Positions 3,761 through 28,950 of a DNA stretch of 49,473 bases are shown here, one piece after another. Below the pieces are notes generated by a model, which ran no database searches, was not told where the DNA came from, and saw only the letters and a list, made by a program, of their open reading frames with translations. Position numbers and translations under genes: made by a program. Source of the stretch: Candidatus Hydrogenedentota bacterium (GTDB lineage: Bacteria; Hydrogenedentota; Hydrogenedentia; Hydrogenedentales; SLHB01); the NCBI GenBank assembly GCA_045863315.1, contig BTUX01000003.1:1-49473 (forward strand), given 5' to 3'. How positions within the stretch are numbered: the first letter of the stretch is position 1; each line of letters begins with the position of its first letter.

Positions 3761-3786
3761 TATACTGGACATTGAAGTCCACTTAT
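3761..3786 (+). promoter_or_regulatory. Candidate Rrf2 operator overlapping a -10 box upstream of the porin
   Basis: TATACTGGAC-ATTGAA-GTCCACTTAT; the GGAY-N6-GTCC core recurs at 6090-6103. Confidence 0.5.
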
Positions 3787-3853
3787 GGACACGGGGGCGA
3801 GTGGCCGCCATGGCCGACGGAGCGGGCGGTCACCGTACTGCGGAGGGAGACCC

Positions 3854-5407
3854 ATGAAATACCTGATGGCGATTGGTCTAATGGGGGGGGTGGCGTTGAC
3901 GGCGGCCGCCGAGTTGCAGAACGTAGACGTCGGCGGCGAGATCCGAATCCGGGCCCGGTATTGGCAAAACACGTACGTGACCGGAATCAATGGTCCCGGA
4001 GAAATCCGCATACCGGACTTCTTCGTGCCGAAGCGCGCGATCGGGCCCTTTGGCGTCACGAGCCGCTACGACTGGAACGACGCCGAGAGCGATCTGGATT
4101 TCGTCGAGCAGAGGACCCGCCTGAACGTGCGGGCGGATTTCACGAACGAGGTGGCGGCATTCCTCGAACTCGAATCGTATGACATCTGGGGCGAAGAGTT
4201 CCGCTCGAATTACGTGACGGGCGCCGACGCCAGGGCCAATACGAACAACGATGTGGAAATGTATCAGGCATACATCGAGGCGAGCGAGATCTACGGGCTG
4301 CCCCTTCGCCTTCGAATCGGGCGCCAGGAGCTGAAACTCGGCAAAGGCTGGCTGGTCGACGACATCACGACCGCCATCATCGGCCGCTCGTTCGACGCGG
4401 TCCGGTTGACGTACAGCACCGATACTTTCGACGTTGACGCCTGGTGGAGCAAGCTTGCCGAGGGCGGAGCCGATGAAGAGGACGGCGACATCGACTTTTA
4501 CGGCCTGTATGCCACGTGCAAGGCGTTGGAGGCGCTCCATGCATCTGTCTACTGGCTCTATATTCGCGACGGGCGGAGCTTGAACGACACGAACTTCATA
4601 GCCCCGATCGAATGGCTCGAAGACCTCGTCGGCTTGGACAACTACGATCCCACCGGGATGCACACCGTCGGCGTGCGTCTGTTTGGCGGCGTGGAACGGC
4701 TGGACTACGATCTCGAACTCGCGTATCAGTTCGGCGACGCGGACGCCGTGGGCGTCGGCTTCGCCCCGGCGGGATACCTCTACGGCGATGACGATGCGGA
4801 TTTCGACGCGTGGGCGGGTGATCTCGAGATCGGATACACGATCGACATGGCCTGGCAGCCCCGCGTGTTTGTGGGCGGCGCCTATTTTGAGGGGGAGGAC
4901 AACCGGGACCTCACGTTTTTCGAATGGCTCAACCCATTCCACCGCCCGGAGGCCAGCGTCTCCTTTAATCGCCTCTTCCCGGGAAAACCCTACAGCATGA
5001 TCCTCGAAATCGGGCAGGACATGTCCAACTTCTGGCAGGCGCGCGGCGGCGTGACGGTACATCCCACCGATTCGGTGAGCAGCGGGCTGACGGTGGCGTA
5101 CTTCGGAGTCGACGAGCCGTTTGACGCCCCCGTCACGGTCACGGTAGGCAATTTTAAAATCCCGGTCGCGCCCGCGCTGAGCTTTTGGACGAACGAATCC
5201 GCCGACGACATCGGCGTGTCGACGCACCTGTGGATCAATTACCAGTATTCGGAAGACCTGTATTTCAAGATCGGCTGGGAGCACCTGTTCACGGGGCAGG
5301 GACTCGAAGACGGCAGTTTCATGCACCGGTACGGTCTCGAATTCAGCGGGGGATCGGACGACGACGATGCGGATTACATCTACTTCGACACGGGTCTGAA
5401 GTTCTAG
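3854..5407 (+). CDS. Alginate-export-family outer membrane beta-barrel porin
   Basis: Signal peptide after a GGAGGGAG RBS; GGEIRIRAR, EQRTRLNV, VEMYQAYIE, LRIGRQEL, SFDAVRL strands; C-terminal Phe (YFDTGLKF). Confidence 0.8.
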   Translation: MKYLMAIGLMGGVALTAAAELQNVDVGGEIRIRARYWQNTYVTGINGPGEIRIPDFFVPKRAIGPFGVTSRYDWNDAESDLDFVEQRTRLNVRADFTNEVAAFLELESYDIWGEEFRSNYVTGADARANTNNDVEMYQAYIEASEIYGLPLRLRIGRQELKLGKGWLVDDITTAIIGRSFDAVRLTYSTDTFDVDAWWSKLAEGGADEEDGDIDFYGLYATCKALEALHASVYWLYIRDGRSLNDTNFIAPIEWLEDLVGLDNYDPTGMHTVGVRLFGGVERLDYDLELAYQFGDADAVGVGFAPAGYLYGDDDADFDAWAGDLEIGYTIDMAWQPRVFVGGAYFEGEDNRDLTFFEWLNPFHRPEASVSFNRLFPGKPYSMILEIGQDMSNFWQARGGVTVHPTDSVSSGLTVAYFGVDEPFDAPVTVTVGNFKIPVAPALSFWTNESADDIGVSTHLWINYQYSEDLYFKIGWEHLFTGQGLEDGSFMHRYGLEFSGGSDDDDADYIYFDTGLKF

Positions 5408-5489: not shown

Positions 5490-6047
5490 ATGTTCAAGTT
5501 GTACTCCAAGGGCTGTGAATATGCCTTGCGCGCTCTGTCCTTCGCGGCGATGACCAACGGCGAAGGCCGGTTCAAGACGCGGGAAATCTGCGAGTGGACC
5601 GGAATTCCGGAATCCTACGCGCGAAAGATGTTCCTCGCCCTCGTTCACAGGGGACTGCTGCGGGCCATACGAGGTCCGGGCGGAGGCTACGCGCTGACGC
5701 GATCACCCGGGCGCATTACGTTGCTCGACATCATCCAGGCCGTCGACGGGAAGGACACCTTCGATCACTGCGTGATGGGACTGCAGATTTGCGATTCAGC
5801 GGATCCGTGCCCGCTCCATGAAACCTGGGCGCGCGCAAAGGAGCGACTGCTGGCGCAGCTCCGCCGGCGCACGCTCGAGGACTTGCTGACAGCCTCGGCC
5901 GGGGCAATGTGCCGCCTCGTCTCGACGAGCGCGGGGAAGGACAGGCGACGGTCATGCTCAGGGGTCTGGGGTGGAGGTGCGTCGAGCGAGCGCTCATCAA
6001 ACGAAGGGGACGAGCGCAATCGTCCGGGCGGAAAGAAAAGGGGTTGA
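5490..6047 (+). CDS. Rrf2 family transcriptional regulator (three-Cys, Fe-S-binding type)
   Basis: SKGCEYALRAL, RGPGGGYAL, ITLLDIIQAVDG, and Cys cluster CVMGLQICDSADPCPLH. Confidence 0.88.
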   Translation: MFKLYSKGCEYALRALSFAAMTNGEGRFKTREICEWTGIPESYARKMFLALVHRGLLRAIRGPGGGYALTRSPGRITLLDIIQAVDGKDTFDHCVMGLQICDSADPCPLHETWARAKERLLAQLRRRTLEDLLTASAGAMCRLVSTSAGKDRRRSCSGVWGGGASSERSSNEGDERNRPGGKKRG

Positions 6048-6174: not shown

Positions 6175-7086
6175 ATGAAAGTGCGCGGCCACTGCAACGG
6201 TCACGGCGCCAGGCGCAGACTTTGGATTGCGCTTCGACCCGGCGTGTGCGTCGCGCTGTGCACGGGCATGCTGGCGGCCCCGCCCGCGGGAACACAGGAA
6301 CCGGAGGGAGCGGCCGCCCCGCAGCCGGAAGCCCCCCAAGCCTTGGCGCCAGCGGTCCCTGAAGAAGTGTCGGCTTCCGCCGAGCCCGAACCGGACCATG
6401 CGGCGCAGTTGTACACCTTGAAGTGCGCAGGCTGTCACACGGTGGGAGGAGGGGCGCTTTCGGGTCCCGATCTGAAGCCGACCCAAACATGGCCTCGCGA
6501 CAATCTCGTCCCTGCAATCCAGCGGATGGAAAAAAATGTGGGCCCCTTGAAGCCGGAGGAGGTCGAGCAGTTGACCGATTTCCTGTTGGCGGCAGACGCG
6601 GCGGCGCGCCTGGTTGAGGAGCGCAAACGAATCAGCCTTCAGCAGGCGGCCAAGCTCGAACCCGCGTCGGCCGCGATAGGAGAAGCCTTGTTCTTTGGCC
6701 GGCAACCGCTGACGAACGGGGGCTTGTCGTGCGCGTCTTGCCACGCCGTCGCGGGCCGGGGCGGCAACCTCGCCAGCGACCTCACGGGCAGTTTTGCCAA
6801 GTTGGGCGAAGTGCCCCTGGGTTCGACCATTGAAAACGCGACGTTTCCCCTGATGCAGGTGGCCTACGCGAACGGTCCGGTCAGCAAGCAGGAAACGGTG
6901 CATCTCGTGAAATATCTGGAAACCGTATCCAAAGAACCGCCCGCGGCGGTCCGCGTGCCGCCCATTCACGGCATCGGCACGGTGGGCGCGGCGGCGATCA
7001 TTGCGCTAATGGGCGTTTCCTACCGCGGTCGGAACCGGGGCGTTCGAGCACGGCTCGTGCAAGCGGCAACGAGGAGAACTTCGTAA
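6175..7086 (+). CDS. narC: Membrane-anchored diheme cytochrome c (NarC-like)
   Basis: Two CxxCH motifs (CAGCH, CASCH), N-terminal export signal, C-terminal TM helix; stop overlaps the narG ATG; GGAGGA RBS. Confidence 0.75.
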
Positions 7087-10000
7087 TGGGTTGGATCAAG
7101 GACATCTTCGCGCCCAAGCAACGCTCGTGGGAGGAGTTCTACCGGAACCGCTGGTCGCACGACAAGGTGGTGCGCAGCACGCACGGCGTGAATTGCACGG
7201 GCGGCTGCAGTTGGAACATCTACGTCAAGCAGGGCATCGTGACGTGGGAAATGCAGGCGCTGGACTACCCGCGTTTCGACCTCGATATTCCGCCCTACGA
7301 ACCCCGCGGGTGCCAGCGGGGCATCTCGTACTCCTGGTACATCTATAGCCCGCTGCGCGTGAAGTATCCCTATGTCCGCGGCAAACTGCTCGACCTTTGG
7401 CATGCGGCCAAGGAACAGCACCCAAACGATCCCGTTGCCGCGTGGCGCTCCATCGTCAGCGATCCGCAACTTCGCCGCAGCTACCAACAGGCCCGCGGGA
7501 AAGGCGGGCTGCGCCGGGTGTCGTGGGACGAGGTGAACGAACTCATCGCGGCCGCAAACATCCATACCATTCTCGCCCACGGATCGGACCGCATCGTCGG
7601 ATTTTCGCCCATTCCGGCGATGTCCATGATCAGCTATGCGGCCGGCGCGCGCTTCATGCAACTCATCGGCGGCGTGTCGATGTCCTTTTACGACTGGTAC
7701 TGCGATCTGCCGCCGGCGTCGCCTGAAATCTGGGGCGAACAAACGGATGTCGCCGAGAGCGCGGACTGGTTTCACTCGAAGTTCATCGCAACCGTGGGCT
7801 CGAACGTGCTCATGACGAGGACGCCCGACGCGCACTTCCTCGTTGAAGCCCGCCACCGCGGCGCGAAGGTCGTGGTGTTTTCGCCTGACTTCAGCCAGAC
7901 CTCGAAGGTCGCGGACGAATGGATCCCGATACACCAGGGACAGGACGGCGCGTTCTGGATGGCCGTGAACCATGTCCTGTTGAAAGAGTTCTACGTCGAC
8001 CGCAAGGTCGACTACTTTGTGGACTACCTGAAACGATTCACCGATTCGCCCTTCCTCGTCCGATTGGAGGACCAAGGAAACGGCGCGTATCGGCCGGGAT
8101 CGTTCCTGCGGGCATCACACATAGCAAAGACGTCCGCCGAGGACCTCGCGGAATGGAAGATGTTCGTCCTCAATGAAGACACGCACGAACTGCAAATGCC
8201 GAAGGGCACGGTCGGACACCGTTGGCAAAAACAAAAGGGCGAGTGGAACCTCCAACTCGAGGACACGCTGACGGGCGCACCGATAAACCCCGCCCTGTCG
8301 CTCAAGGACTGCGCGGAGGACAGCCTGCCCGTCGAGTTTCGCGACTTTTCGCACTCCACGAACGACAAGGCCTGCCTGCGCAAGGTACCCGCCCGCAAAG
8401 TCGAGACCGCCAACGGTCCGGTGTGGGTGGCGACGACGTTTGACCTGCTGATGGCGCAGCACGGCGTCAACAACGGGCAGCAGGGGGACTATCCAACGGG
8501 ATACGAGGACGATGCGTCACCCTACACGCCCGCGTGGCAGGAACAGTTCACCGGGATCAAGGCCTCGGTGGTAATCAATTTCGCGCGGCAGTGGGGAAAA
8601 ACCGCCGAGCGCACGGAAGGCAAGTGCTCAATCATCATCGGCGCCGGGGCCAACCACTGGTATCACAACAATCTCATCTACCGCGCCTGCATCACCAGTC
8701 TGATGTTGTGCGGTTGCGTCGGCCGCAACGGCGGCGGATGGAACCATTATGTGGGACAGGAAAAGCTCGCGCCGCAGGCGTCGTGGGCCCCCGTCGCGTT
8801 CGGAACGGACTGGGCGGGCCCGCCGCGCATGCAGAACTCGCCTTCGTTCCACTACATTCACTCGGACCAGTGGCGCTACGACCAACCATTCAACGAAATC
8901 TGCGCGGTCGGCGACGAGTCGCATCGCATGGCCTCCGGGCACACGGCGGACAAACAGGCCCTGGCCGTCCGCTGCGGCTGGCTGCCGTTCTTCCCGCAAT
9001 TCACAAAGAGCAATTTCGAGGTCGTTCGTGAAGCCGAATCCGCGGGTGCCAAGACGGCGGACGAGATCATCCAGCACGTGGTCCAGCGGCTGAAGGATCG
9101 CACATTGAAATTTGCCGCGGAAGACCCCGATGCGCCCGAGTGCTGGCCCCGGGTGTGGTACATCTGGCGCGGGAACGCCATCCAGGCCTCGGCAAAAGGC
9201 CACGAGTATTTCCTGAAACATTACCTGGGCACGCACCACAACTCGATTGCCGACGAAGTCGCGGGCGAATTCGTCGAGGATGTCACCTGGCACGACAAGG
9301 TCGAACTCGGGAAGATGGACCTCGTGGTGGACCTCAACTTCCGCATGGACACGTCCGCCCTTTACTCCGACATCGTCCTACCCGCCGCGACCTACTATGA
9401 AAAGGACGACCTGAACTCGACCGACATGCACTCGTTCATCCATCCGCTGCAGGCGGCGGTGCCGCCGTGCTGGGAGTCGAAAAGCGACTGGTGGATATTC
9501 CGCGACATCGCTCGCAAGACGAGCGAACTCGCGCTTCGCTATCTGCCAAAACCTCTCAAGGACCTCGTCGCCACTCCGCTCCTGCACGACACGCCGGCCG
9601 AAGTCGCGCAGCCATCGATCAAGGACTGGGCGAAGGGCGAGTGCGATCCGATTCCGGGTAAGACCATGCCCAACCTGACCGTGGTCGAACGCGACTACAC
9701 CAAGGTGTATCAGAAGTTCATCAGCTTGGGACCCAACTTCCGCAACAAGGGCATCGGCCTTCATGGAACGCTGTACGACGTATCGGACCTGTACGACGAG
9801 TACATGGAAACGCACCCCGTCGAGCGATGGAACGGCGCCCAATACCCCTCGCTGCGGGACGAAAAATCGGTGTGCAACGTCATTCTCCATTTCGCCGCCG
9901 AAACAAACGGCGAGTGTGCGTGGCGGGCATACAAGTCCGAGGCCGAAAAAACCGGTCTCGACCACTCGCATCTGGCGGCGGACACCCGCGCCGTGCGCAT

Positions 10001-10718
10001 CTCATTCGACGACATCTGCGCCGAACCGCGCCGCTTTCTGACTACGCCGTACTGGACGGGCAACACGAACGGGGGCCGAACCTACTCGGCATTCTGTCAG
10101 AACGTGGAAGGAATGGTGCCGTGGCGGACCTTGACGGGCCGGCAGCACTTCTACCTTGACCACGAGGCGTACCGGGCCTTCGGCGAGCACCTGCCGACCT
10201 TCAAACCCCGCGCCGACCGGCATACGACCCGCGACCTCGAAAAGACGGCCGCGGACCATGGAACTCTGGTCTTGAATTACCTGACCCCGCACGGCAAGTG
10301 GCATATCCACTCGACCTACGGCGACACCCTGCGCATGGAAACCTTGTCGCGCGGGATCGAACCCATTTGGATGAACGACCGCGACGCGGGCCTTCTCGGC
10401 GTGGCCGACAACGATTGGGTGGAGGTGATCAACGATCACGGCGTGGTGGTGACGCGGGCCTGTGTCAGCGCGCGCATCCCCCGCGGCATCTGTTTCATTT
10501 ATCACGCTACCGAACGCACCGTGGGCACGCCCAAATCGCCGGGCCGCGGCAACCGTCGCGCCGGCGCCCATAACAGCCTGACTCGCGCCCGGCTGAAACC
10601 GCTGTTCATGATCGGCGGATACGCGCAGTTCACGTACGCCTTCAATTATTGGGGCCCCACAGGTGTGAATCGGGACACTTTCGTGGTCGTTCGCAAACTG
10701 AACAAGGTGACGTTCTGA
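7086..10718 (+). CDS. narG: Respiratory nitrate reductase (Nar/Nxr type) molybdo-bis-MGD alpha subunit, cytoplasm-facing
   Basis: [15 protein letters not shown]0 motif, [39 protein letters not shown]; 1210 aa; no Tat signal. Confidence 0.97.
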
Positions 10719-10902
10719 ATGCGGTACAAGTCGCAGACCAACGCCGGGCACCCCGAGAAACCCGGAACCCGGGTACGGAGCGGGACGGAAAGCATGCATA
10801 CGAGACACCCGAAACCCATCGCGCGTGCCGTCCCCGCAGGCCACCGCGAGCACTGACAGGCCGACACCGCAATCGGATAACGGAACGAAGGAGACCACCC
10901 CA

Positions 10903-12408
10903 ATGGATGTACGCGCCCACGTATCGATGGTGTTCCACCTCGATAAATGCATCGGGTGCCACACGTGCAGCGTGGCGTGCAAAAACGTGTGGACGGACCG
11001 GCCCGGCGCCGAATACATGTGGTGGAACAATGTCGAAACCAAACCCGGCACCGGCTATCCCACATTGTGGGAGGACCAGCTCAACTACAAGGGCGGCTGG
11101 GAAGTGACGGCAGGGCGCGAACTGCGGCTGCGTTGTCAGACCAAGGCGAGCAGTTTTCTCAAGCTGTTCTACAACCCCAACCAACCCGGTCTGGACGACT
11201 ACTACGAGCCCTGGACGTATCGCTACCAGGAGCTGTTCGACGCCGAGGCGGGAGATGATCAACCCACGGCCATTCCCGTCTCGCAGATCACCGGCGAGCC
11301 GATCGACATCGAAGCCGGTCCCAACTGGGACGACGATCTGAGCGGGTCCCCGATTTATGCGGAAAACGATCCCAATCTGAAGCGCCTCACCGACGATGAG
11401 CGGCGCATGCTGTTCGAAATCGAGAACGTCGCGATGATGTACCTGCCGCGCATTTGCAACCACTGCGCCAATCCGAGTTGCGTCGCGTCGTGCCCGTCCG
11501 GCGCGCTGTACAAGCGCGGAGAGGACGGCATTGTGCTCGTCAATCAAGACGTATGCCGCGGATGGCGCGCCTGCGTGGCGGCTTGCCCGTACAAAAAGAT
11601 GTACTACAACTGGCAGACCGGCAAGTCCGAGAAGTGCATCCTGTGCTATCCGCGGGTGGAAACAGGGCAGGCCCCGGCGTGCTTCCACTCGTGCGTCGGA
11701 CGCATCCGCTACATGGGGGTGCTGCTCTACGACGCGGGACGCATGGAAGACGCGATGAAGGCGCCCGACGAGTCGCTGGTGGAAGCGCAACGCGGCGTAT
11801 TGCTCGATCCGAACGATCCCGAAGTTGTCCGCGAGGCGATCCGGAGCGGCGTCAGCGAGAAGTTCATCGAGTCGGCGCAGCGTTCGCCAGTGTACAAGTA
11901 CGTAAAAGAATGGCAGCTCGCGCTCCCGCTCCACGCGGAATTCCGCACCATGCCCATGCTCTATTATGTTCCCCCGCTACTGCCGGTTTCCGGGCGGATG
12001 GGCGACGGAATCTACGAGCACGACGCCGAGGAATTCTTCTCGCATCTCGACAAAGCACGAATCCCGATCCGATACCTGGCCGCGCTGTTCGGCGCGGGCA
12101 ACGAGGACGTCGTCCGCGCGGTGCTGAAGAAACAGATGGCGGTCCGCTACTACAAACGCGCGCAGGAGGTCGATGACGTGGAGCCGGACCGAGTAAAGCG
12201 GGTGCTGCGCGAAGCGCACCTCACGGCGGAAGACGCCGAGGCCATCTACGCGCTGACCTCCCTGTGCGGGCCGGACGATCGGTATGTGCTGCCTCCAATC
12301 CAACGCGAGGAAGCCATCGACGGGCGCGACACGCAGGGCTGCTCGCCGGAACTGTGCAAGGGCCAGTGCGGGCTGGGTCAGGTGCAGATGCCGCGTCGGG
12401 GGGCCTGA
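10903..12408 (+). CDS. narH: Nitrate reductase beta (Fe-S) subunit
   Basis: DKCIGCHTCSVACKNVW, CNHCANPSCVASCP, CRGWRACVAACPY, KCILCYPR; GAAGGAG RBS. Confidence 0.96.
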   Translation: MDVRAHVSMVFHLDKCIGCHTCSVACKNVWTDRPGAEYMWWNNVETKPGTGYPTLWEDQLNYKGGWEVTAGRELRLRCQTKASSFLKLFYNPNQPGLDDYYEPWTYRYQELFDAEAGDDQPTAIPVSQITGEPIDIEAGPNWDDDLSGSPIYAENDPNLKRLTDDERRMLFEIENVAMMYLPRICNHCANPSCVASCPSGALYKRGEDGIVLVNQDVCRGWRACVAACPYKKMYYNWQTGKSEKCILCYPRVETGQAPACFHSCVGRIRYMGVLLYDAGRMEDAMKAPDESLVEAQRGVLLDPNDPEVVREAIRSGVSEKFIESAQRSPVYKYVKEWQLALPLHAEFRTMPMLYYVPPLLPVSGRMGDGIYEHDAEEFFSHLDKARIPIRYLAALFGAGNEDVVRAVLKKQMAVRYYKRAQEVDDVEPDRVKRVLREAHLTAEDAEAIYALTSLCGPDDRYVLPPIQREEAIDGRDTQGCSPELCKGQCGLGQVQMPRRGA

Positions 12409-12410
12409 TC

Positions 12411-12947
12411 ATGCCGGTACTCGCGACAAATCGGACGTTCCTGGCGGGACTCGGCAAACTGCTCGAATACCCCGGGCAGGATTTCCATGCACACTTTGAT
12501 CGCGTCCTCGCACAGTCCGACGAAATGGGGCCCGAAATCGGCGCCGCGCTGTATTCGTTCGCCCAGGAAGCATCGCAATTCTCGGTCGAACACGCGCAGG
12601 AAATGTACACGCGCGCATTCGACGTGAACCCCCTCTGCGTGCCGTATCTCAGCGTCCATTTGTTCGGACAGGAAAGCTTCAAGCGCGCGGAACTCATGAC
12701 GGGGCTAAAGGCGAAGTACGAAGCTCGCGGCTTCGATTACGGCGCGGAACTCCCGGATCATCTCTCGGTCGTGTTGCAGGCCGTCTCCTGTTTTTCCGAT
12801 GACGAGTGGGACGAACTGCGTACCTATTGTATCGAGAAACCGTTGGCCGCCATGGCGGCGGCCCTGGATCGCGCCGCCAGTCCCTGGCGTCACGTGGTGC
12901 GCGCCGTCCAGCGCGCGTTGTCGATTGGGGAAGAGGACCATGCTTAG
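12411..12947 (+). CDS. narJ: Nitrate reductase molybdenum cofactor assembly chaperone
   Basis: LLEYP, QEMYTRAFD, PYLSVHLFG, ELPDHLSVVL; lies between narH and narI. Confidence 0.9.
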   Translation: MPVLATNRTFLAGLGKLLEYPGQDFHAHFDRVLAQSDEMGPEIGAALYSFAQEASQFSVEHAQEMYTRAFDVNPLCVPYLSVHLFGQESFKRAELMTGLKAKYEARGFDYGAELPDHLSVVLQAVSCFSDDEWDELRTYCIEKPLAAMAAALDRAASPWRHVVRAVQRALSIGEEDHA

Positions 12948-14259
12948 CTCATTCGCATTCATCGGACTACCGTACATCGCCCTATTCGTGCTTGTCGCAG
13001 GGTCGATTTACCGCTTTCGCTCCACCCCGTTCAGCTATACCGCGCTGTCGTCCCAGTTCCTCGAGAGCAAGAAACTGCTTTGGGGGTCGGCGCCGTGGCA
13101 CATTGGGATTCTCATCGTCTTTCTCGGCCACCTCGTACCCTTCCTCGTCCCGGGCCTGTGGCAGGGCCTCACGTCGCATATCGGGTTCCTGTTCGCCGTA
13201 GAGGTCGTGGGGATGATTGCCGCGTTCCTGTGTCTGGCGGGTCTGACCGTCCTGATTCTCCGGCGCCTGACTTCGCCGCGCGTACAGGCCGTCACGACCC
13301 CGATGGACCTCGTCATCCTTGTCCTGCTCCTGGGACAGGTGTTGCTCGGCATCGCAACCGCCTCGAATTACCGCTGGGGCGCCGCCTGGTCCGCGCACAC
13401 GACGACGCCGTACTTGTGGAGCCTGTTGACGCTTCAACCCGACATGCGGTATGTCGAGATGCTTCCGCCGACCGTCAAACTTCACATCTTCGGCGCCTGG
13501 CTGATTTTCTTGTGCCTGCCGTTTACGCGGCTCGTGCATGTGTTCTCTTTGCCGTTCCAATATCTCTGGCGGAGGCCGCAGGTGGTGGTGTGGACCAACG
13601 CCCGGCGCATCGCGAGCATCGCCCCTATTGCCCGCACCGCGGAACAAAGCCGCCGGCTCTTTCTCAAAGGCATGGTCGGGGTCAGTTCCGCCGCCGGTCT
13701 GCTCACGGTCGGTGTATTGGACAAACTGGCCCGCTTTTTCAGCGGCCCGGACATGACGCCGGAAGAACAGGCCGCGCTGCTCAAGAAGCGATTGCAGCGC
13801 CTCGAAATGACCGCCGAGGAACGGGAGTTGGAACTCGAACGACTCCGCAGCGACTACATTTTCGTCGCGCAGTTGAGCGAATTATCGCCGAAAGACGGCA
13901 AATATTTTATCGACTACGAGATGCGGCCGGCGCTCGCGTTTCGTGACGAATCGGGCCTGCCGATTCTGATCTCCGCGAAGTGCACGCATCTGGGCTGCAC
14001 GGTCGCCAGCACGATTGACAGCAACGGTCGCATACTCTGCCCCTGCCACATGTCGTATTTCGATGTGAAGACCGGCCGGCCGCAGCCGGGGGCGCCCGCG
14101 ACGGTGCCCCTCCCGATGTTGGGATGGGTGCTCAAAGACCCGCAAGGCAAAGTGTTAATCAGTCAGAGCCCGAGCGGCGCGCTCGAAGGCGAGGCCACCC
14201 CCGAGCAATTGGAGACGTCCGCGGTGTTCATCGCAAAACGCTACGAGGAGATTGCGTAA
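12940..14259 (+). CDS. narI: NarI (diheme cytochrome b) fused to an internal Tat motif, TM anchor and Rieske [2Fe-2S] domain
   Basis: NarI part: SSQFLE, WHIGILIVFLGH, KLH...PFTRLVH (four heme His). Then SRRLFLKG, a hydrophobic helix, and CTHLGC / CPCH Rieske boxes, all in one 439-aa frame. Confidence 0.9.
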   Translation: MLSSFAFIGLPYIALFVLVAGSIYRFRSTPFSYTALSSQFLESKKLLWGSAPWHIGILIVFLGHLVPFLVPGLWQGLTSHIGFLFAVEVVGMIAAFLCLAGLTVLILRRLTSPRVQAVTTPMDLVILVLLLGQVLLGIATASNYRWGAAWSAHTTTPYLWSLLTLQPDMRYVEMLPPTVKLHIFGAWLIFLCLPFTRLVHVFSLPFQYLWRRPQVVVWTNARRIASIAPIARTAEQSRRLFLKGMVGVSSAAGLLTVGVLDKLARFFSGPDMTPEEQAALLKKRLQRLEMTAEERELELERLRSDYIFVAQLSELSPKDGKYFIDYEMRPALAFRDESGLPILISAKCTHLGCTVASTIDSNGRILCPCHMSYFDVKTGRPQPGAPATVPLPMLGWVLKDPQGKVLISQSPSGALEGEATPEQLETSAVFIAKRYEEIA

Positions 14260-15362
14260 TGAGTTCCGATCGGCTCAACGCCCTCGCCCACTTTTTCCGC
14301 GAGCGGTTTCCGGTCGAGCACCTGAGCTATGAATCGATGGTGCAGAAAAAAGAGGTGCCGGTCCATCGCATGAGTTGGGCCTACTACTTCGGCGGCCTTA
14401 CCCTGTTCTTCTTTCTCATTCAGCTGGCCACGGGGGTCATGCTCCTGTTTTATTACCAGCCGACCGTTAGCGATGCGCACGCCTCCGTGGAGTTCATCGC
14501 CAAGCACGTGAGCGGCGGCGCGCTCGTCCGCAACCTGCACACGTGGGCCGCGTCCGGCATGATCTTCTGCCTGCTGGTCCACCTGATCACGACGTTTGCC
14601 ATGAAGGCCTTCGCCAAACCCCGCGAGGTCACGTGGATTACCGGCGTCGTGCTGCTGCTGCTGACCTTCGGGTTCGGGTTCACCGGCTATCTCCTCCCGT
14701 GGCACCAGATCGCCGTCAACGCCACCAAGGTCGGCCTCCAATCCATCGAAGAGGCGGGCCAATATCTGCCCGGCGCCCTGTCCCAAATCCCTAGAGACGT
14801 CAAAGAACTCATTCAGGGCGAAGCTTCCGTCGGCCAAGCCACCTTGAGCCGCTTTTTCGCGCTGCACGTGGTCATTCTTCCGCTGCTGGTTTTTGCGACC
14901 CTCGGCCTTCACGTGTTTCTCGTTCAACTCCACGGCATGAGCCAAGGGGTCGATACGCCGGCAACGAAGACCGAGCGCTTCTTCCCCTTCTTCGTTCTCA
15001 AGGATTTCTATCTGTGGGGTCTCGTCTTCCTCGTGCTGTTCGCCGTGTCGTTATGCCTGCCGTTCGAGTCGATGTTCTCCTACCCCTTGTTCGAGCCCTT
15101 CGACCCCTTGGGCTCAACGCCGGACGGCATTAAACCGGAATGGTACTTCTACTTCGTGTACTACCCGCTCGAACTGCTGCCGTTTTGGTTCGTCATGCTC
15201 GCATCGATGGCCACGATCGCCGTCCTGATCGCAGCGCCCTGGATTTTCGCCCAGACCAGCCGGCGGACCCTCGGAATGATGGCGGCCGGGGCCGCGATCT
15301 ACCTCGTTGTGATGACGCTGTTCGGCGACGCGATCTATACGTTTTTTAGAGGAGCACCATGA
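14259..15362 (+). CDS. Cytochrome b of a Rieske/cytochrome b (bc-type) complex, unsplit
   Basis: YFGGLTL...ATGVMLLFYYQP, RNLHTWAAS...LVH, GFTGYLLPW, RFFALH...LGLH, Qo motif IKPEWY; coupled to the NarI-Rieske stop (TAATG). Confidence 0.92.
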   Translation: MSSDRLNALAHFFRERFPVEHLSYESMVQKKEVPVHRMSWAYYFGGLTLFFFLIQLATGVMLLFYYQPTVSDAHASVEFIAKHVSGGALVRNLHTWAASGMIFCLLVHLITTFAMKAFAKPREVTWITGVVLLLLTFGFGFTGYLLPWHQIAVNATKVGLQSIEEAGQYLPGALSQIPRDVKELIQGEASVGQATLSRFFALHVVILPLLVFATLGLHVFLVQLHGMSQGVDTPATKTERFFPFFVLKDFYLWGLVFLVLFAVSLCLPFESMFSYPLFEPFDPLGSTPDGIKPEWYFYFVYYPLELLPFWFVMLASMATIAVLIAAPWIFAQTSRRTLGMMAAGAAIYLVVMTLFGDAIYTFFRGAP

Positions 15363-16003
15363 TGAAGGCCAATCACCTCGGCGGATCTATCTCGATTTGC
15401 GTTATCGCGCTGGCGAGCGCGCAGGTCGCGTTGGCATACCCCGAGTTTCAACAGTTCATCCAGCGCAACTCGGGCCGGAACGTCAATTGCGCGATGTGCC
15501 ACGTCAATTCGGATGGCCCCGAAGGGCTGAAACCCGGGCAAATCGGCAGTCTCACGCCGGAGGAAATGGATCGGTTGAACAAGGCGCGTGCGGCCTTCGA
15601 GCCCGGGCAGCGCGTCGACAGTCCGATCCTCAACACGTTTGGCAATCACATCATGGAAACCGTGGGGAAAAACCGTTTCCTGCAACTCCGGCTTGATCCC
15701 GCCGGTCTTGCGGAGGCGCTCGGCCGCGAAAGCGATCTCGACGATGACGGCATCTGCGACGCGGACGAGTATCTCGAGGGCACGCACCCGCTGGACGCGC
15801 ACCACGGCAGCCCGTGGCGGCTTTTCAAGACGAACGCCCGCCGGTACGCCTTCCACATCGCGATGATGGTCTTGGCTACCGCCGCGGGTGTGTACGGACT
15901 GAACAACCTGCTGCGCGCCTTCGACGCCGCGGCCCATGCACGGGCGGGAGGCCAGACCGCCGGGCGGGAGTGGTCCGGCGCGCGCGAGAACCGGAGAGGA
16001 TGA
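15359..16003 (+). CDS. Membrane-anchored monoheme cytochrome c (candidate c1/f functional analogue)
   Basis: Signal peptide ending ALA, CAMCH, acidic DLDDDGICDADEY repeat, C-terminal TM helix; ATGA overlap with cytochrome b. Confidence 0.7.
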   Translation: MMKANHLGGSISICVIALASAQVALAYPEFQQFIQRNSGRNVNCAMCHVNSDGPEGLKPGQIGSLTPEEMDRLNKARAAFEPGQRVDSPILNTFGNHIMETVGKNRFLQLRLDPAGLAEALGRESDLDDDGICDADEYLEGTHPLDAHHGSPWRLFKTNARRYAFHIAMMVLATAAGVYGLNNLLRAFDAAAHARAGGQTAGREWSGARENRRG

Positions 16004-16072
16004 TCACGTTTATCGTGCGCGCAGCCGCGCGTTGACGTACTTGCCGTTTGACGTCGCTCGGGGGAAGGGAAT

Positions 16073-17578
16073 ATGAAAGACCGTGGAAAAGCGTTGACCG
16101 TGCTCGTGTTGAATACCGTCGCGTTCACCGTGTGCTTTGCATGTTGGATGCTGAACGGCGTCCTGGTCACGTTTCTCAGTGAAAACCACGTTTTCGAGTG
16201 GAGCGAATCCCAGATCGGCTGGCTCATGGGCATTCCCGTGCTTAGCGGATCCCTTATACGGCTGCCCGTCGGCATTCTGACGGACAAATACGGCGGGAAA
16301 TGGGTGTACGCCGGAGTCATGCTCTTTTCGGCGATTCCGATGTACCTGCTGAGTTACGCAAGCACCTACGCGCATTTCTTCTGGGCGAGCCTTGGCTTCG
16401 GCCTCGCCGGCACTTCATTCGCCGTCGGCATCGCGTACACCTCGGTATGGTTCCGGCGCGAACATCAGGGCACGGCGCTTGGCATCTTCGGCGCGGGAAA
16501 CGCGGGCGCCGCGCTGACCAGCATGGGCGCGCCGGTCCTGCTAGGCTGGCTCACCGACCACGGTGAAAACGTGGAGGCATGGCGCCAGATGCCCCGCATT
16601 TACGCATTAGGATTGCTGCTCATGGCCGTCCTGTTCCTCCTGTTTGCGGCGCCCAAAAAGGTGGATGACTCGCACATCACCAGCTTTATGCAGCGCCTCG
16701 CGCCGTTGCGCCATGCGCGGGTCTGGCGGTTCGGGCTGTATTACTTCCTCGTATTCGGCGGCTTCGTCGCGCTTGCCCAATGGCTGATCCCCTACTACGT
16801 CAGCGTCTACATGATGCCGCTGGCCATGGCGGGCCTATTGGCCTCGATTTTCAGCCTGCCTTCCGGCGTCATTCGCGCGTTGGGCGGATACCTCTCCGAC
16901 GTCTACGGCGCTCGGCGCGTCATGTATTGGGTCCTGGGCAGTTGCGCGGTTTGCTGCGCACTGCTGGTTGTTCCGCGTATGGACATCCACTCGCCGGGCA
17001 AGGGCATCATCGCCAAGCGTAGCGGCACCGTCACCCACGTGAGCGAAGCCGAGATAGTGGTAGACGGCATTCGCTATCCGGTGCGGGCCAAGACGCGCGA
17101 AATCGAACGGGACGCGAACATGCTCATTTTGCCGACGCTCAGCACGTGGCAGGAGCCCGTGGTCAAGGTGGGCGAGGTCGTGAAAAAGAAGCAATTGCTC
17201 GCCGCGGGAATGACTCACATTTATTTCCAGGCCAACGTGTGGGTGTTCACCGGACTGGTATTCATTGTGGGTGTCATGATGGGAATTGGAAAGGCCGCGG
17301 TCTACAAGCACATTCCCGATTACTTTCCGAAAGAAGTCGGCGTGGTTGGCGGAATCGTCGGCGTGCTTGGCGGATTGGGGGGGTTCTTCTGCCCCATCAT
17401 TTTCGGTTACATGCTCGAGTGGACGGGCCTGTGGATCACGTGCTGGTTTTTCTTTGCAGCACTGTCCATCGTCTGCCTGTGGTGGATGCACGCCGTGATC
17501 CAGCAGATGCTGAACCAGGAAGCCGCGCTTCATGCCCGAAACATCGAGCATGTGACAGTCACGGCGGAAACCGCATAG
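16073..17578 (+). CDS. narK: NarK1-type nitrate/nitrite MFS transporter with a soluble insert
   Basis: NNP signatures GTALGIFGAGNAG and GIVGVLGGLGGF, RALGGYLSD; ~85-aa hydrophilic insertion in the C-terminal half. Confidence 0.9.
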   Translation: MKDRGKALTVLVLNTVAFTVCFACWMLNGVLVTFLSENHVFEWSESQIGWLMGIPVLSGSLIRLPVGILTDKYGGKWVYAGVMLFSAIPMYLLSYASTYAHFFWASLGFGLAGTSFAVGIAYTSVWFRREHQGTALGIFGAGNAGAALTSMGAPVLLGWLTDHGENVEAWRQMPRIYALGLLLMAVLFLLFAAPKKVDDSHITSFMQRLAPLRHARVWRFGLYYFLVFGGFVALAQWLIPYYVSVYMMPLAMAGLLASIFSLPSGVIRALGGYLSDVYGARRVMYWVLGSCAVCCALLVVPRMDIHSPGKGIIAKRSGTVTHVSEAEIVVDGIRYPVRAKTREIERDANMLILPTLSTWQEPVVKVGEVVKKKQLLAAGMTHIYFQANVWVFTGLVFIVGVMMGIGKAAVYKHIPDYFPKEVGVVGGIVGVLGGLGGFFCPIIFGYMLEWTGLWITCWFFFAALSIVCLWWMHAVIQQMLNQEAALHARNIEHVTVTAETA

Positions 17579-17594
17579 AAGGGGGGATTGCGCA

Positions 17595-19211
17595 ATGGCT
17601 GTGCTCGCAAAGTGGGAGCCGGAAGACGTCGCGTTCTGGGAAAGCGAGGGGAAACGCACGGCGTTCCGAAACCTTTGGATTTCCATTCCAAACCTGCTGA
17701 TGGCATTTGGTATCTGGATTTACTGGAGTGTGATCATCAGCGTCATGCAGGGCCTTCACGACGGCAACCCGGCCCTGTACAACTTCACCGCGGCCGACGG
17801 CCGGCCGTTGACGGGAAACGCGTATAAAGCGCTGCTCTACACGCTGCCGGCGGTCGCGGGACTGTCGGGCGCAACGTTGCGCATCCCGAATTCCTTCATG
17901 ATCGCAATCTGCGGTGGCCGCAATGTCAAGTTTATGACCACGCTCCTGCTGATTCTTCCCGCTCTGGGTACCGGGTTTGCCTTGAAGGACCCCGGCACCT
18001 CGTTCTTCACCTACGTGGTGTTGGCCGCGCTCTGCGGCATCGGCGGCGGCGCCTTCGCGTCGTCCATGTCCAACATCAATTTCTTTTTTCCCAAGCGCGT
18101 CCAGGGGTTGTCGCTGGGGTTGAACGCAGGACTTGGAAACCTCGGGGTCTCCGTGTTCCAGTTGGCGATTCCGTGGGTCATCACGTTTGGAATCTTCGGC
18201 GGCGAACCGTTTGACCTGAAGGGCGCGCCCGTCTGGCCGCACAACGCGGGGTTTGTGTGGGTGCCGATCCTGGCGGTGCTGGCCGTCTTGGCCTTTACCT
18301 CCATGAACAACCTGCCCCAGCACTTCAACGGTTCCACGCTTGTTGCGTGCGGCCGCTATCTGTGGCTCGAACTGCTGGGCTATGGCGGCGTGGCCGTCGC
18401 CATTCTGCTCCTCTTACAGTCCAAGTCGTGGAGCTTCGCGCCTGAACTCCTCGAGACGCTCGTCATTGTCTGCGTCGCGATTACCGTCACCATGGCGCTG
18501 ATGCGGTTCGCCACTCCAAGACAGACGAGGGACAGCCTGCAAAAACAGTTCGCCATCTTCTCGAACAAACATAATTGGGTGATGACGTATCTCTATGTGA
18601 TGACCTTCGGCAGCTTCATCGGATATTCCAGCGCCTTTCCCAAATTGCTCAAAGACGTGTTCGGCTACGTGCGCGTCGATGAGTCCGGCGCCCCGCTGGC
18701 CGAGGCTATCGTGAATCCCCATGCGCCCGACTTCCTGAAGTTCGCCTTTCTCGGCGCCGCGATGGGCGCTGCCATTCGCCCCTTGGGCGGGTGGCTCTCC
18801 GACAAGTTCGGCGGTGCGCGGGTCACCCATTGGGACACCGTCATCATGACGGGAACCGCCGTGCTGTGCGGGTGGGTCGTAAAACTGGCGATGGCGTCGG
18901 CGCACCCCGAGCGGTACTTCCTCCCCTTCTTATTGCTGTTCATACTGTTGTTCGCGACCACGGGGATCGGAAACGGTTCGACCTTCCGCATGATCGCCAT
19001 CATCTTTCCAAAGGAGCAGGCCGGGCCCGTCCTCGGATGGACTTCGGCGGTCGCCGCCTACGGCGCCTTCCTCATTCCCACCATCTTTGCGATGCAAATC
19101 GAGGCCGGCCGCCCCGAGTACGCCATGTACGGGTTTGCCGTGTACTACGTGACGTGCCTCGCGCTCAACTGGTGGTACTACGCCCGCACGAATGCCGAAG
19201 TAAAGTGCTGA
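17595..19211 (+). CDS. narK: NarK2-type nitrate/nitrite antiporter
   Basis: WEPED..FWE..GK..AFRNLWISIP, GLNAGLGNLG, TFGSFIG, GIGNGSTFRMI, GWTSAVAAYG. Confidence 0.92.
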   Translation: MAVLAKWEPEDVAFWESEGKRTAFRNLWISIPNLLMAFGIWIYWSVIISVMQGLHDGNPALYNFTAADGRPLTGNAYKALLYTLPAVAGLSGATLRIPNSFMIAICGGRNVKFMTTLLLILPALGTGFALKDPGTSFFTYVVLAALCGIGGGAFASSMSNINFFFPKRVQGLSLGLNAGLGNLGVSVFQLAIPWVITFGIFGGEPFDLKGAPVWPHNAGFVWVPILAVLAVLAFTSMNNLPQHFNGSTLVACGRYLWLELLGYGGVAVAILLLLQSKSWSFAPELLETLVIVCVAITVTMALMRFATPRQTRDSLQKQFAIFSNKHNWVMTYLYVMTFGSFIGYSSAFPKLLKDVFGYVRVDESGAPLAEAIVNPHAPDFLKFAFLGAAMGAAIRPLGGWLSDKFGGARVTHWDTVIMTGTAVLCGWVVKLAMASAHPERYFLPFLLLFILLFATTGIGNGSTFRMIAIIFPKEQAGPVLGWTSAVAAYGAFLIPTIFAMQIEAGRPEYAMYGFAVYYVTCLALNWWYYARTNAEVKC

Positions 19212-23379: not shown

Positions 23380-24813
23380 CTACGCCAGCAACTCCGTGAC
23401 GATCCTACCGGAGACGTCGGTCAGGCGAAAATCTCTCCCCTTGAATCGATACGTCAACCTGGTGTGGTCCATGCCGAGCAGGTGCAGAATGGTCGCCTGC
23501 AGATCATGCACGTGGACCGGTTTCTCGACGACATGGAAGCCGAGGTCGTCGGTGGCGCCGATGGTCTGTCCGGTCCGGACGCCCCCACCGGCGATCCACA
23601 TGGTGAAGGCCTGGGGGTGGTGGTCGCGGCCCATGCTGCGCCCCAGCGCCGCGCTGGATTCGACCATGGGGGTGCGGCCGAATTCGCCGCCCCAGATGAT
23701 GAGCGTGTCCTCGAGCATGCCGCGCTGCTTCAAGTCCTTAATCAATGCGGCCGTCGCCCGATCGGTTGCGCCGCACTGGGCCTTGAGACCGCCGGCGACG
23801 TCGCCGTGGTGGTCCCAGCCGCCGTGGTACACGTTGACGAAGCGGACGCCGCGTTCGAGGAGGCGGCGCGCGAGCAGACAGTTATTCGCGAACGAGGCCT
23901 TGCCGGGTTCCGCGCCGTACATCGCGAGGGTTTCGGGCGATTCCTTCGCGATGTCCATGAGTTCCGGCGCGCTGCTCTGCATGCGGTAGGCCAGTTCGTA
24001 GTTGCTGATGCGCGTTTCGATTTCGGGATCGCCGACCGCTTCGAAGCTGTGGCGGTTGAGTTGGTTGATGAGATCGATGGAGTCGCGTTGCATCAGCGCA
24101 TCGATGCCCTGAGGGTTTGAAACGCTGAGAATGGGATCGCCCGCGCTCCGGAACGGCACGCCTTGATAAACCGTAGGCATGAACCCGCAACCCCAGCAAT
24201 GCGCTCCGCCGCTCACGCCTTCGCCCGTGCTGAGCACGACAAACCCGGGGAGGTCGTCCGCTTCGCTGCCGAGTCCGTAGGCGACCCACGAGCCCATGCT
24301 GGGCCGGCCCATCTGCGGGGAACCGGTGTTCATGAAGATTTGCGCGGGCGCGTGATTGAATTGGTTCGTGTGCATCGACTTCACGATGGCGATATCGTCG
24401 GCGACGGTGGCGAGGTGGGGAAGCATCTCGGAGAGTTCCGCGCCGGACTGGCCATACTTGGCGAACTGGAATCGCGACGCCATCAGGCCGGCATTGGGCT
24501 GAATGAAGGCGTACCGCTGGTCCTTGACAATCTCCGGCGGGACGGATCGGCCGTCGTATTTGGTGAGCGTCGGTTTATAGTCGAAGAGATCGAGTTGGCT
24601 CGGCGCGCCCGCCATGAACAGGTAGATGACTCGCTTCGCCTTGGCCGGGTAGGGGGGCCGGCGCGGCGCGAGCGGGTTGGGCGCGGCGGCCGCAGCGCCA
24701 CGGCAAAGCATCGAGGCCAGCGCAATCTTGCCTACCCCCACCCCGCACTCGCGGAAGAAGTGCCGGCGGGTGAGGGTTTGGAGCCGGATAGAATCGCTTC
24801 TACGTTGAACCAT
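23380..24813 (-). CDS. DUF1501 domain protein
   Basis: [59 protein letters not shown]; follows a DUF1553 gene. Confidence 0.92.
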
Positions 24814-24829
24814 CGGGCTTCCTGGAATC

Positions 24830-24854
24830 GTCGGACCTGTCAGACGGGTCCGAC
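24830..24854. repeat. Short intergenic REP-like hairpin
   Basis: GTCGGACCTGT-CAG-ACGGGTCCGAC between the DUF1553 and DUF1501 genes. Confidence 0.45.
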
Positions 24855-24955
24855 CGGTGCGACTTGTTCATTTCACCGGACTTGCCAACCTTGCCAGGCG
24901 ACTGCCATTCGCCATAATACTATAGAATTTCGGTTTTTCACACCCCGCGTCACCA

Positions 24956-28630: not shown

Positions 28631-28950
28631 TGCATGGCCTCGATAGCAGCTTTGACCCAATACCTTCTCAGAATACCAGATTCCCAACGGTTTGCGAACC
28701 CCGCCGACCTGCCAACCAAACGGCTGGATGAATTCCGGGTTCAGCTTTGCGAGAATCAGCCGGGGCAGGCGAACACTCAAGATGGAACGGAAAGCGCCGC
28801 ACTCCAGTTTTCATAAACCCAATCGGCGGGGCCGGTGCCTTTTTCGGCATAATGGATGCAAACTTGCGCGCTGCGTCCCGGTCAGTTCGAGTGTCGTCGC
28901 CGAGCTACGTTGGTTCTTTCTCTGGGTCCGCCTTGGAGAACGGAGGTTGA

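Follow-up and report, generated by a model that had tools for sequence, protein, structure and literature searches.

A cytoplasmic-type nar operon with an embedded Rieske/cytochrome b module

The window analyzed here, a 49,473-nucleotide (nt) stretch of DNA from a Candidatus Hydrogenedentota bacterium (positions 1 to 49,473 of contig BTUX01000003.1, assembly GCA_045863315.1), carries on its forward strand a cassette of nine genes (6175-19211), all with ATG starts, in which the components of a respiratory nitrate reductase (Nar) are interspersed with those of a Rieske/cytochrome b complex (hereafter, the bc module; Table 1, with coordinates given as positions in the window). The central element is the fifth gene, where NarI and a Rieske [2Fe-2S] domain share a single reading frame (NarI::Rieske); it is followed by the genes for a cytochrome b and a monoheme c-type protein, cyc1, and a diheme c-type cytochrome, cyc2, is encoded at the upstream end of the cassette, directly before narG. 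All nine genes lie where the first-pass annotation of this DNA had placed them, in the same order and on the same strand, and its description of the junctions as mostly overlapping holds: there are four overlaps, of 1 nt (TAATG) at both the cyc2/narG and the fusion/cytochrome b junctions, of 8 nt between narJ and narI, and of 4 nt (ATGA) between the cytochrome b gene and cyc1, alongside a 2-nt gap between narH and narJ and a 184-nt gap between narG and narH. The two-heme and one-heme c-type proteins and the cytochrome b with a PEWY motif that had been recognized in that annotation are likewise confirmed by the motifs, and the cytoplasmic active site proposed there is supported by the N terminus of NarG, in which inspection of the translation revealed no twin-arginine motif, together with the presence of NarJ, NarI, and NarK. 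The window NarG is 63% identical to that of Thermus. In the comparison with curated protein family models, NarJ falls slightly short of the cut-off of TIGR00684 (58.6 vs. 59.35 bits), and the NarI part of the fusion scores above that of TIGR00351 (141 vs. 105.55 bits).

Table 1. Genes and protein features of the nitrate reductase cassette and its upstream neighbor
Feature	Position	Strand	Basis
cyc2, membrane-anchored periplasmic diheme cytochrome c, by sequence a Thermus NarC homolog	6175-7086	+	CAGCH at residue 84, CASCH at residue 186
narG, catalytic molybdenum-bis(molybdopterin guanine dinucleotide) (Mo-bisMGD) subunit, cytoplasmic type	7086-10718	+	TIGR01580, 1538.3 bits vs. cut-off 1084
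narH, iron-sulfur subunit	10903-12408	+	TIGR01660, 633 bits vs. 524; PF13247, PF14711
narJ, assembly chaperone	12411-12947	+	PF02613, 48.3 bits vs. 22.2
narI::Rieske, one frame of 439 amino acids	12940-14259	+	PF02665, residues 5-219 (E 1e-63); PF00355, residues 308-392 (E 1e-8)
NarI domain of the fusion, five helices and two b hemes	12940-13620	+	PF02665
Internal twin-arginine motif SRRLFLK, then weakly hydrophobic helix 6	13648-13719	+	Alignment A1, hydrophobicity
Conserved charged helix (…EERELELER…) between helix 6 and the Rieske head	13759-13851	+	A1, AlphaFold2
Rieske [2Fe-2S] domain, bc-type, with both extra cysteines	13855-14259	+	PF00355, E 1e-8
Cytochrome b, b6-like N-terminal half fused to subunit-IV-like half	14259-15362	+	PF00033, E 1e-41; PF00032
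cyc1, membrane-anchored monoheme c-type protein	15359-16003	+	Single CAMCH, residue 44
narK-type major facilitator superfamily (MFS) transporter 1	16073-17578	+	PF07690, E 1.8e-44; TIGR00886, 176 bits, under cut-off 311.7
narK-type MFS transporter 2 (NarK/NarU-like)	17595-19211	+	TIGR00886, 266 bits, under 311.7; NF011608, 277 bits
Rrf2-family regulator gene	5490-6047	+	PF02082, E 1.7e-31; TIGR00738, 103.9 bits vs. 73.3

The spacer between narG and narH (10719-10902) is long for this family of loci, most of the related ones having only ~20-35 nt at this place; in RNA-library contigs of two runs, it contains a CCC insertion after position 10831.

Conservation and spread of the cassette

A protein database search with the NarI::Rieske fusion returned 653 matches at E ≤ 0.001, and each of the 120 fusion relatives among the matches listed is 429-479 amino acids (aa) long and contains both PF02665 and PF00355. 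The only name attached to them at the source is "nitrate reductase gamma subunit," so the link to a bc complex is invisible in automatic metabolic reconstructions. In contigs representing one genome per species, at least 446 stretches encode a relative of the fusion. For the synteny survey that had been suggested together with the first-pass annotation, the best 80 of these at least 446 loci were searched with the window proteins using tblastn, order and strand were checked, and each gene was counted over the loci whose contig includes its expected place. Core gene order and strand proved constant wherever the contig reaches, both in the upstream part (cyc2, 54/54 loci; narG, 57/57; narH, 65/65; narJ, 73/73) and in the downstream part (Rieske part of the fusion, 75/75; cytochrome b, 71/71; cyc1, 67/67), and NarK-like genes were found on the same strand in 51 of the 80 loci. 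The constancy of the gene order in these 80 loci indicates that the cassette is not a chance arrangement.

Judged by the record labels, the best 80 loci represent at least 10 phyla, with labels including Hydrogenedentota, Verrucomicrobiota, Sumerlaeota, Obscuribacterales/Melainabacteria, Acidobacteriota, Planctomycetota, Omnitrophota, Bacteroidota, Gemmatimonadetes, Myxococcales, and others; the closest loci among the matches listed (71-75% identity) are labeled Hydrogenedentota. By the record labels, the cassette is common in wastewater, sludge, and soil. An index search recovered the stretch from runs of 12 studies labeled wastewater, bioreactor, sludge, and soil, four rows of which perhaps derive from the source sample; the habitat labels of runs with only small shares were disregarded.

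Anatomy and predicted topology of the NarI::Rieske fusion

The ligands of the cofactors are strictly conserved in both halves of the fusion. The four histidines aligned to H56, H66, H187, and H205 of Escherichia coli NarI (1q16_C) are invariant in 121/121 fusions, and a 27-row alignment of the fusion (A1) shows no variation in the Rieske boxes CTHLGCT and CPCHxSxF either, both cysteines of the bc-type disulfide included. The best solved relatives of this domain are the Rieske proteins of bc1 and b6f complexes. Thus, the hallmarks of a bc-type Rieske protein, namely, the CxH…CxxH boxes, the two disulfide cysteines, and a Tat (twin-arginine translocation)-type anchor, are all present, with the anchor being internal in this case and located after five NarI helices. 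The NarI helices are followed by the twin-arginine motif SRRLFLK, by GMVGVSSAAGLLTVGVL, which corresponds to helix 6, and by DKLAR with its positive charges. The arginine pair inside SRRxFLK is invariant in 27/27 rows of A1, and helix 6 lies under the 1.6 Kyte-Doolittle threshold, which the five NarI helices exceed. In the AlphaFold2 model of the fusion (predicted local distance difference test [pLDDT], 79.4), the NarI bundle is connected through a poorly defined cytoplasmic linker to a long helix, which comprises helix 6 along with the Tat motif; this is followed by another helix, charged and conserved (residues 275-304), and by the beta-rich Rieske domain. Within the …ELELER… stretch of this second helix, E299, E301, and R302 are invariant in A1.

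The C terminus of E. coli NarI is cytoplasmic, and because NarI ends in the cytoplasm, the twin-arginine motif of the fusion lies inside the cell. Proteins that are handed over from the Sec to the Tat machinery are described as combining Sec-inserted helices, a twin-arginine motif, a weakly hydrophobic last helix, and then positive charges (PMC5449189), and the fusion displays this same pattern of motif, weak last helix, and positive charges. The motif and the weak helix 6 coming after the cytoplasmic end of NarI therefore put the Rieske domain, as predicted from these signals, outside the membrane, on its outer face. The polytopic metalloproteins known to use both pathways, such as the actinobacterial Rieske protein, Sco3746, and the NapH-NapG fusion, similarly have the cofactor domain outside (PMC5449189). 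The NarI-Rieske fusion is not among the Sec/Tat families named in the sections of that article that were available, and with its predicted Tat dependence, it is a new candidate for combined insertion, by Sec for the five NarI helices and by Tat for helix 6 and the folded Rieske domain.

Cytochrome b and the c-type cytochromes

The cytochrome b is a single protein of 367 aa, the first half of which has cytochrome b6 as its best match in the PDB (E 1e-48). Across this family, the four heme histidines and the PEWY motif (at residue 293 in the window protein) are conserved in 72/72 sequences each, and the cysteine that binds heme ci in b6 (Cys35) is replaced by tyrosine in 72/72.

In cyc2, a signal-like N-terminal segment and a C-terminal hydrophobic helix (residues 264-282) flank the two heme domains, and both CxxCH motifs along with two methionines are invariant in a 40-row alignment (A2), which suggests that the protein carries two His/Met hemes. 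When plasmids were searched with cyc2 using tblastn, all 14 matches were from Thermus; the match in pTHTHE1601 falls on a c-type cytochrome gene that immediately precedes narG, within an operon of the composition c-narG-narH-chaperone-narI-MFS. Given 42% identity to Thermus NarC over the second heme domain, cyc2 is, by sequence, a NarC homolog; it also matches, weakly, the model of the actinobacterial QcrC (E 3.9e-8).

The second c-type protein, cyc1, combines a signal-like N terminus, the single CAMCH, a calcium-site-like DxDxDG-type motif (DLDDDGICDADEY; thrombospondin-type-3-like), and a C-terminal helix, and its mean column identity over 40 rows is 48%. It matched no Pfam or NCBIfam family and no PDB sequence of note, and its confident AlphaFold2 model (pLDDT, 85.5) retrieved no fold matches in the PDB at E ≤ 0.001. 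In a protein atlas, cyc1 falls into a 280-member cluster of its own, commonest in Verrucomicrobiota, which leads to Temptin_C/TSP3-like clusters only at a score of 0.90 or below. Like cytochrome c1, it has one CxxCH and a C-terminal anchor, but it is unlike solved proteins in sequence and fold and is at most a candidate acceptor of the c1/f type.

Loss of the basic residue at the quinol-site column of NarI

In E. coli NarI, Lys86 is located at the quinol site, its role being known for E. coli only; in PDB entry 1y5i, this position is occupied by Ala. The corresponding column was compared across the NarI of E. coli and Thermus, 121 fusions, and 117 stand-alone relatives with lengths of 215-240 aa. 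None of the 121 fusions has Lys or Arg at this column (Phe in 78 of them, including the window protein; Val in 11, Ile in 10, Ala in 9, Leu in 9, Met in 2, Thr in 1, and Ser in 1), whereas the column is basic in 88 of the 117 short stand-alone relatives (87 Arg and one Lys) and Arg in Thermus NarI. The surrounding columns differ too, reading N-x-x-P-x-R-L-Y in the stand-alone proteins and T/V-x-x-x-x-F-L-I/L in the fusions.

A maximum-likelihood tree of 102 rows, built from a random 35 of 120 fusions, 35 of the 88 basic stand-alone proteins, and all 29 non-basic ones, united the fusions and the non-basic stand-alone NarI in one clade (Shimodaira-Hasegawa-like approximate likelihood ratio test [SH-aLRT], 94), apart from the Arg-type proteins including that of Thermus. 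Genuine stand-alone NarI proteins with Ala at the Lys86 column form a 19-row clade nested among the fusions. By this phylogeny, it is the clade as a whole that has lost the basic residue, and the loss is no proof that a bc module is needed in cis.

We considered, and rejected, the explanation that all short non-basic stand-alone NarI are truncated fusions: in an Acidobacteriota genome (G132), the gene is complete and ends with a stop codon, and the next gene is an unrelated one on the opposite strand. On contig C40 of this genome, there are two narC-narGHJI clusters ~14 kb apart (L101, 7151-13972; L102, 1355-8508), neither of which adjoins a bc module; the stand-alone NarI without the quinol-site Arg belongs to the first of these.

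Predicted docking of cyc2 on NarI

Multimer structure prediction, which had been put forward at the outset as a check on the complex, was run for the NarI domain (A1, residues 2-232) with four hemes and cyc2 (A2), and the two proteins docked, with scores of 0.63, 0.64, and 0.63 compared with 0.00 for the best of three controls. The pLDDT of the partner was at least 84, and the runs shared at least 80% of the contacts. Calibration of the method had put 58 of 80 solved complexes and 2 of 110 mismatched pairs at or above the mark for docking, figures that apply only approximately here because custom alignments were used and hemes were included. In the modeled interface, the anchor helix of cyc2 packs against NarI helix 3, and the second heme domain sits on the outer face of NarI (residues 48-56, 80-101, 139-155, and 171-177), where the contacted surface adjoins the ligands of the outer heme, above the region that corresponds to the quinol site in E. 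coli. E. coli NarI does not have the outer-loop motif RWGxxW…PYLWS…P, which the fusions, the non-basic and Arg-type stand-alone proteins, and Thermus NarI have in common. We know of no solved NarC-NarI complex. The predicted binding of cyc2 to NarI agrees with a two-hybrid interaction between NarC and NarI reported for Thermus (PMC7694296).

Electron sinks in the host and in other carriers

The genome of the host (4.74 Mb, 95.6% complete) yielded a single match each to PF00033 and PF02665, both within the cassette. On another contig (C204), alternative complex III (ACIII; ActB, C, D, E, and F) is encoded directly upstream of SCO1, COX2 with a c-heme domain, and COX1, that is, a caa3 oxidase. 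A second heme-copper enzyme, which neighbors NnrS and ScdA (contigs C372/C23), is assigned to the quinol-type NO reductases (qNOR) by its NorB cytochrome-c-like domain, and NrfA adjoins an NrfH of the NapC/NirT type (contig C54). A profile search of the host genome did not find NirS, and nothing above cut-off was obtained there for NirK or NosZ: the matches to TIGR04246 and TIGR02376 were sub-threshold only, the former falling in the COX2 gene, and a NosZ search with PF18764 carries no weight given that its control matched no genome. This gene content points to nitrate ammonification combined with NO detoxification, rather than denitrification, in the host. Because ACIII-caa3, qNOR, and NrfHA each come with their own quinol-oxidizing route, NarGHI is the only evident sink for the electrons of the host Rieske protein.

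A census of cytochrome b in 50 carrier genomes, hand-picked from the best 80 loci, presents a more varied picture, with a single match in 16 genomes and 2-6 matches in the other 34, where the module linked to nar represents an additional, separate bc complex. For the possibility raised in the first-pass annotation, that the bc module serves a different terminal enzyme, the host offers no obvious candidate, the other enzymes there being self-supplied.

A proposed supercomplex for nitrate respiration

We propose, with a probability of roughly 0.6, that the products of the cassette form one membrane supercomplex in which menaquinol is oxidized at the quinol oxidation (Qo) site and electrons pass via c hemes to the hemes of NarI. 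Cytoplasm-facing NarGH would be seated on NarI, and a dedicated Rieske/cytochrome b complex would be attached through the C terminus of NarI, which continues as the Rieske subunit of that complex. Of the two electrons released from menaquinol at the Qo site of cytochrome b, one would go to the Rieske cluster on the outer face and from there, through the membrane-anchored cyc1 and the NarC-like cyc2, to the outer b heme of NarI, then cross the membrane via the two NarI hemes and reach NarG through NarH, with nitrate being reduced in the cytoplasm and NarK importing nitrate and exporting nitrite. NarI would thus act as a transmembrane wire, not as a quinol oxidase, and the Q-cycle plus the inward electron transfer would move ~4 charges per 2 electrons, compared with 2 for the E. 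coli redox loop. The order in which cyc1 precedes cyc2 is suggested only by gene position, with cyc1 next to the bc module and cyc2 next to Nar, and by ancestry. In its strictest form, an obligate (NarGH-NarI::Rieske-cytochrome b-cyc1-NarC)2 supercomplex in which NarI is only a wire and the Q-cycle delivers the full charge yield, the proposal is about an even bet. Of the electron path sketched in the first-pass annotation, from quinol through Qo, Rieske, monoheme c, and diheme c to NarI, NarH, and NarG, the architecture, the bc-Nar link, and the feeding of NarI from outside are supported by sequence and docking; what we infer is the physical supercomplex, the sequence in which the c hemes act, the running of a Q-cycle, and the gain in energy.

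The quinone is probably menaquinone because MenD is present in the host genome, in which, at 95.6% completeness, PF02621 detected no futalosine pathway. For a menaquinol-nitrate span of ~505 mV, Q-cycle coupling of a cytoplasmic Nar has been judged feasible (PMC7931247). As for the history of the system, a Thermus-type NarCGHJI may have come first, with the quinol-site Arg subsequently lost and the Rieske/cytochrome b/cyc1 module gained and fused to NarI; one lineage would later have lost the bc module again.

Several observations weigh against this proposal. The non-basic stand-alone NarI of G132 belongs to a narK-cyc2-narGHJI cluster with no Rieske, cytochrome b, or cyc1 gene within 6 kb downstream, the cytochrome b genes of that genome being located elsewhere; thus, the missing basic residue alone does not call for a bc module in cis. 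Other fusions than the window protein have an Arg two columns (34/121) or three columns (15/121) before that of Lys86, which might substitute for it in some cases, and the function attributed to Lys86 is known for the E. coli enzyme alone. The argument from the cytochrome b module being the only bc complex is confined to 16 of the 50 carriers and the host. The long conserved helix that precedes the Rieske head, compared with the short hinge of known bc complexes, may limit the movement of the head, and because cyc1 is unlike any cytochrome c1 or f known to date, one can only guess at which point of the chain it acts. His/Met c hemes usually have a higher potential than the hemes of E. coli NarI, and one electron step may run uphill, against the membrane potential. 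Finally, contigs of an RNA library (X15) cover 30/30 bins, and single contigs bridge cyc2/narG, narH/narJ, narJ/narI, Rieske/cytochrome b, cytochrome b/cyc1, and cyc1/narK1, but such contigs cannot prove a single transcript or exclude DNA carry-over and are a weak hint of expression; stretches of the operon that lack listed RNA contigs in runs X16-X18 were given no weight.

Alternatively, NarI itself could still oxidize menaquinol, with the bc module and the c cytochromes forming a side branch to periplasmic acceptors, or to a caa3 oxidase when nitrate is scarce, so that the fusion would simply co-localize two quinol oxidases. We consider this unlikely. It is true that NarI keeps both hemes and scores above the cut-off of its family-level model, that respiratory chains with further cytochrome b (34/50 carriers) are branched, that some fusions have an Arg 2-3 columns away and the G132 relative has no bc module in cis, and that Thermus NarC has been proposed as an electron bridge to Nir and Nor (PMC7694296). 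However, the outside acceptors of the host are supplied on their own (caa3 by ACIII, NrfA by NrfH, and the NOR being of the quinol type), the basic residue that is usual in the nearest non-fused relatives is missing from every fusion, and the genes for cyc2 and cyc1 always adjoin narG (on its upstream side) and the cytochrome b gene (on its downstream side), respectively. Distinctly less plausible is a structural role, in which Rieske and cytochrome b would serve the assembly, membrane attachment, or stability of NarGH with no obligatory electron flow: the redox ligands of Rieske, cytochrome b, cyc1, and cyc2 are invariant across phyla, which is unexpected for a scaffold, even if loss of NarC in Thermus leaves NarG soluble and immature (PMC7694296) and the authors of the Streptomyces Nar1 study leave open whether bcc-aa3 donates electrons or stabilizes (PMC7931247).

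The NarG score of 1538 bits to the narG equivalog model, the host NrfHA for nitrite ammonification, and the origin of the carriers (by record labels) in many lineages that are not known to be nitrite oxidizers make it very improbable that the system runs in reverse as a nitrite oxidoreductase, with nitrite being oxidized in the cytoplasm and electrons leaving via NarI to the c hemes and on to an oxidase or uphill via the bc complex to quinone, although Nar, c hemes, and a bc complex are the parts that reverse flow needs. A very similar cluster of cytochrome c and narGHJI-like genes does encode a nitrite oxidoreductase in Nitrobacter (PMC7694296).

Relationship to known systems

All parts of the proposed supercomplex are of known kinds, and their combination is new to the literature searched, in which no description of the NarI-Rieske fusion or of the cassette was found, most subscription journals and supplementary files lying outside its scope. 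The closest operon is NarCGHJI(KT) of Thermus thermophilus, where a diheme c gene, to which cyc2 is homologous by sequence, likewise lies directly upstream of narG, NarGH is cytoplasmic and accompanied by NarJ, NarI, and NarK-type transporters, and NarI has the outer-loop motif RWGxxW…PYLWS; its NarC-NarI contact comes from a two-hybrid assay, whereas that of the cassette is only predicted. In Thermus, NarI is a separate protein of 229 aa with Arg at the Lys86 column, in contrast to the NarI fused to a Rieske domain, and the operon is without Rieske, cytochrome b, and monoheme c. The E. coli enzyme (PDB 1q16) shares homologous NarG, NarH, NarJ, and NarI, with the four heme-binding histidines of NarI kept, but has neither c hemes nor a bc module, retains Lys86 at the quinol site, and differs in the outer loop.

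With respect to mechanism, the nearest precedent is the hypothesis on Nar1 and the bcc complex of Streptomyces coelicolor. Nar1 is reported to depend on, and to co-purify with, the bcc-aa3 supercomplex, and a path from Rieske/cytochrome b through a diheme c (QcrC) to heme bD of NarI, with a Q-cycle, has been proposed (PMC7931247). According to the same report, the two complexes are encoded apart, the bcc complex is shared with the oxidase, and the link consists of genetics and co-purification, whereas in the cassette, it consists of a gene fusion within one operon and the bc module is dedicated. Haloarchaeal clusters similarly contain Rieske and cytochrome b genes next to narGH, and these have been proposed to feed Nar (PMC3509893); the haloarchaeal Nar, however, faces outward and has no NarI, unlike the cassette, with its NarG devoid of a Tat motif, its fused NarI, and its NarK. 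In Campylobacter and Wolinella, a Rieske/cytochrome bc complex (Qcr) feeds a nitrogen-oxide reductase other than an oxidase (PMC6195509, as cited in PMC7931247), but the Nap and NosZ enzymes involved are periplasmic, and no fusion joins them to a bc subunit.

It has been stated that, in bacteria, electrons bypass the Rieske/cytochrome b complex on their way to the cytoplasmic Nar (PMC3509893). The cassette suggests the opposite of this rule, at least as formulated in that article, for many bacteria, with the arrangement fixed by gene fusion. If the Q-cycle coupling is true, the energy yields currently ascribed to nitrate respiration and to nitrate ammonification would be underestimates, by as much as twofold, in Hydrogenedentota, Verrucomicrobiota, Sumerlaeota, Obscuribacterales, Acidobacteriota, Planctomycetota, and other lineages. 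Furthermore, the genetically defined cassette offers a test system for the open Streptomyces Nar1/bcc hypothesis and for the role of NarC, and makes the long-debated Q-cycle-coupled cytoplasmic nitrate reduction directly testable.

Flanking genes

The Rrf2-family gene sits 127 nt upstream of the cassette; of the 54 loci that extend this far, at least 22 likewise have an upstream rrf2-like match in the same orientation. Its product scores only 41 bits against the NsrR model (cut-off, 182), and the gene is a probable regulator of the cassette, with weak likeness to NsrR/IscR. It is preceded by a gene for an outer-membrane barrel of the Alginate_exp family (3785-5407), which could be a nitrate/nitrite porin. 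Farther away, on the opposite strand (23380-28780), the window contains a gene pair of a type often met in Planctomycetes-like genomes, which encodes a DUF1501 protein of 477 aa and a PSCyt1/PSCyt2/PSD1 protein of 1274 aa and has no relation to the cassette.

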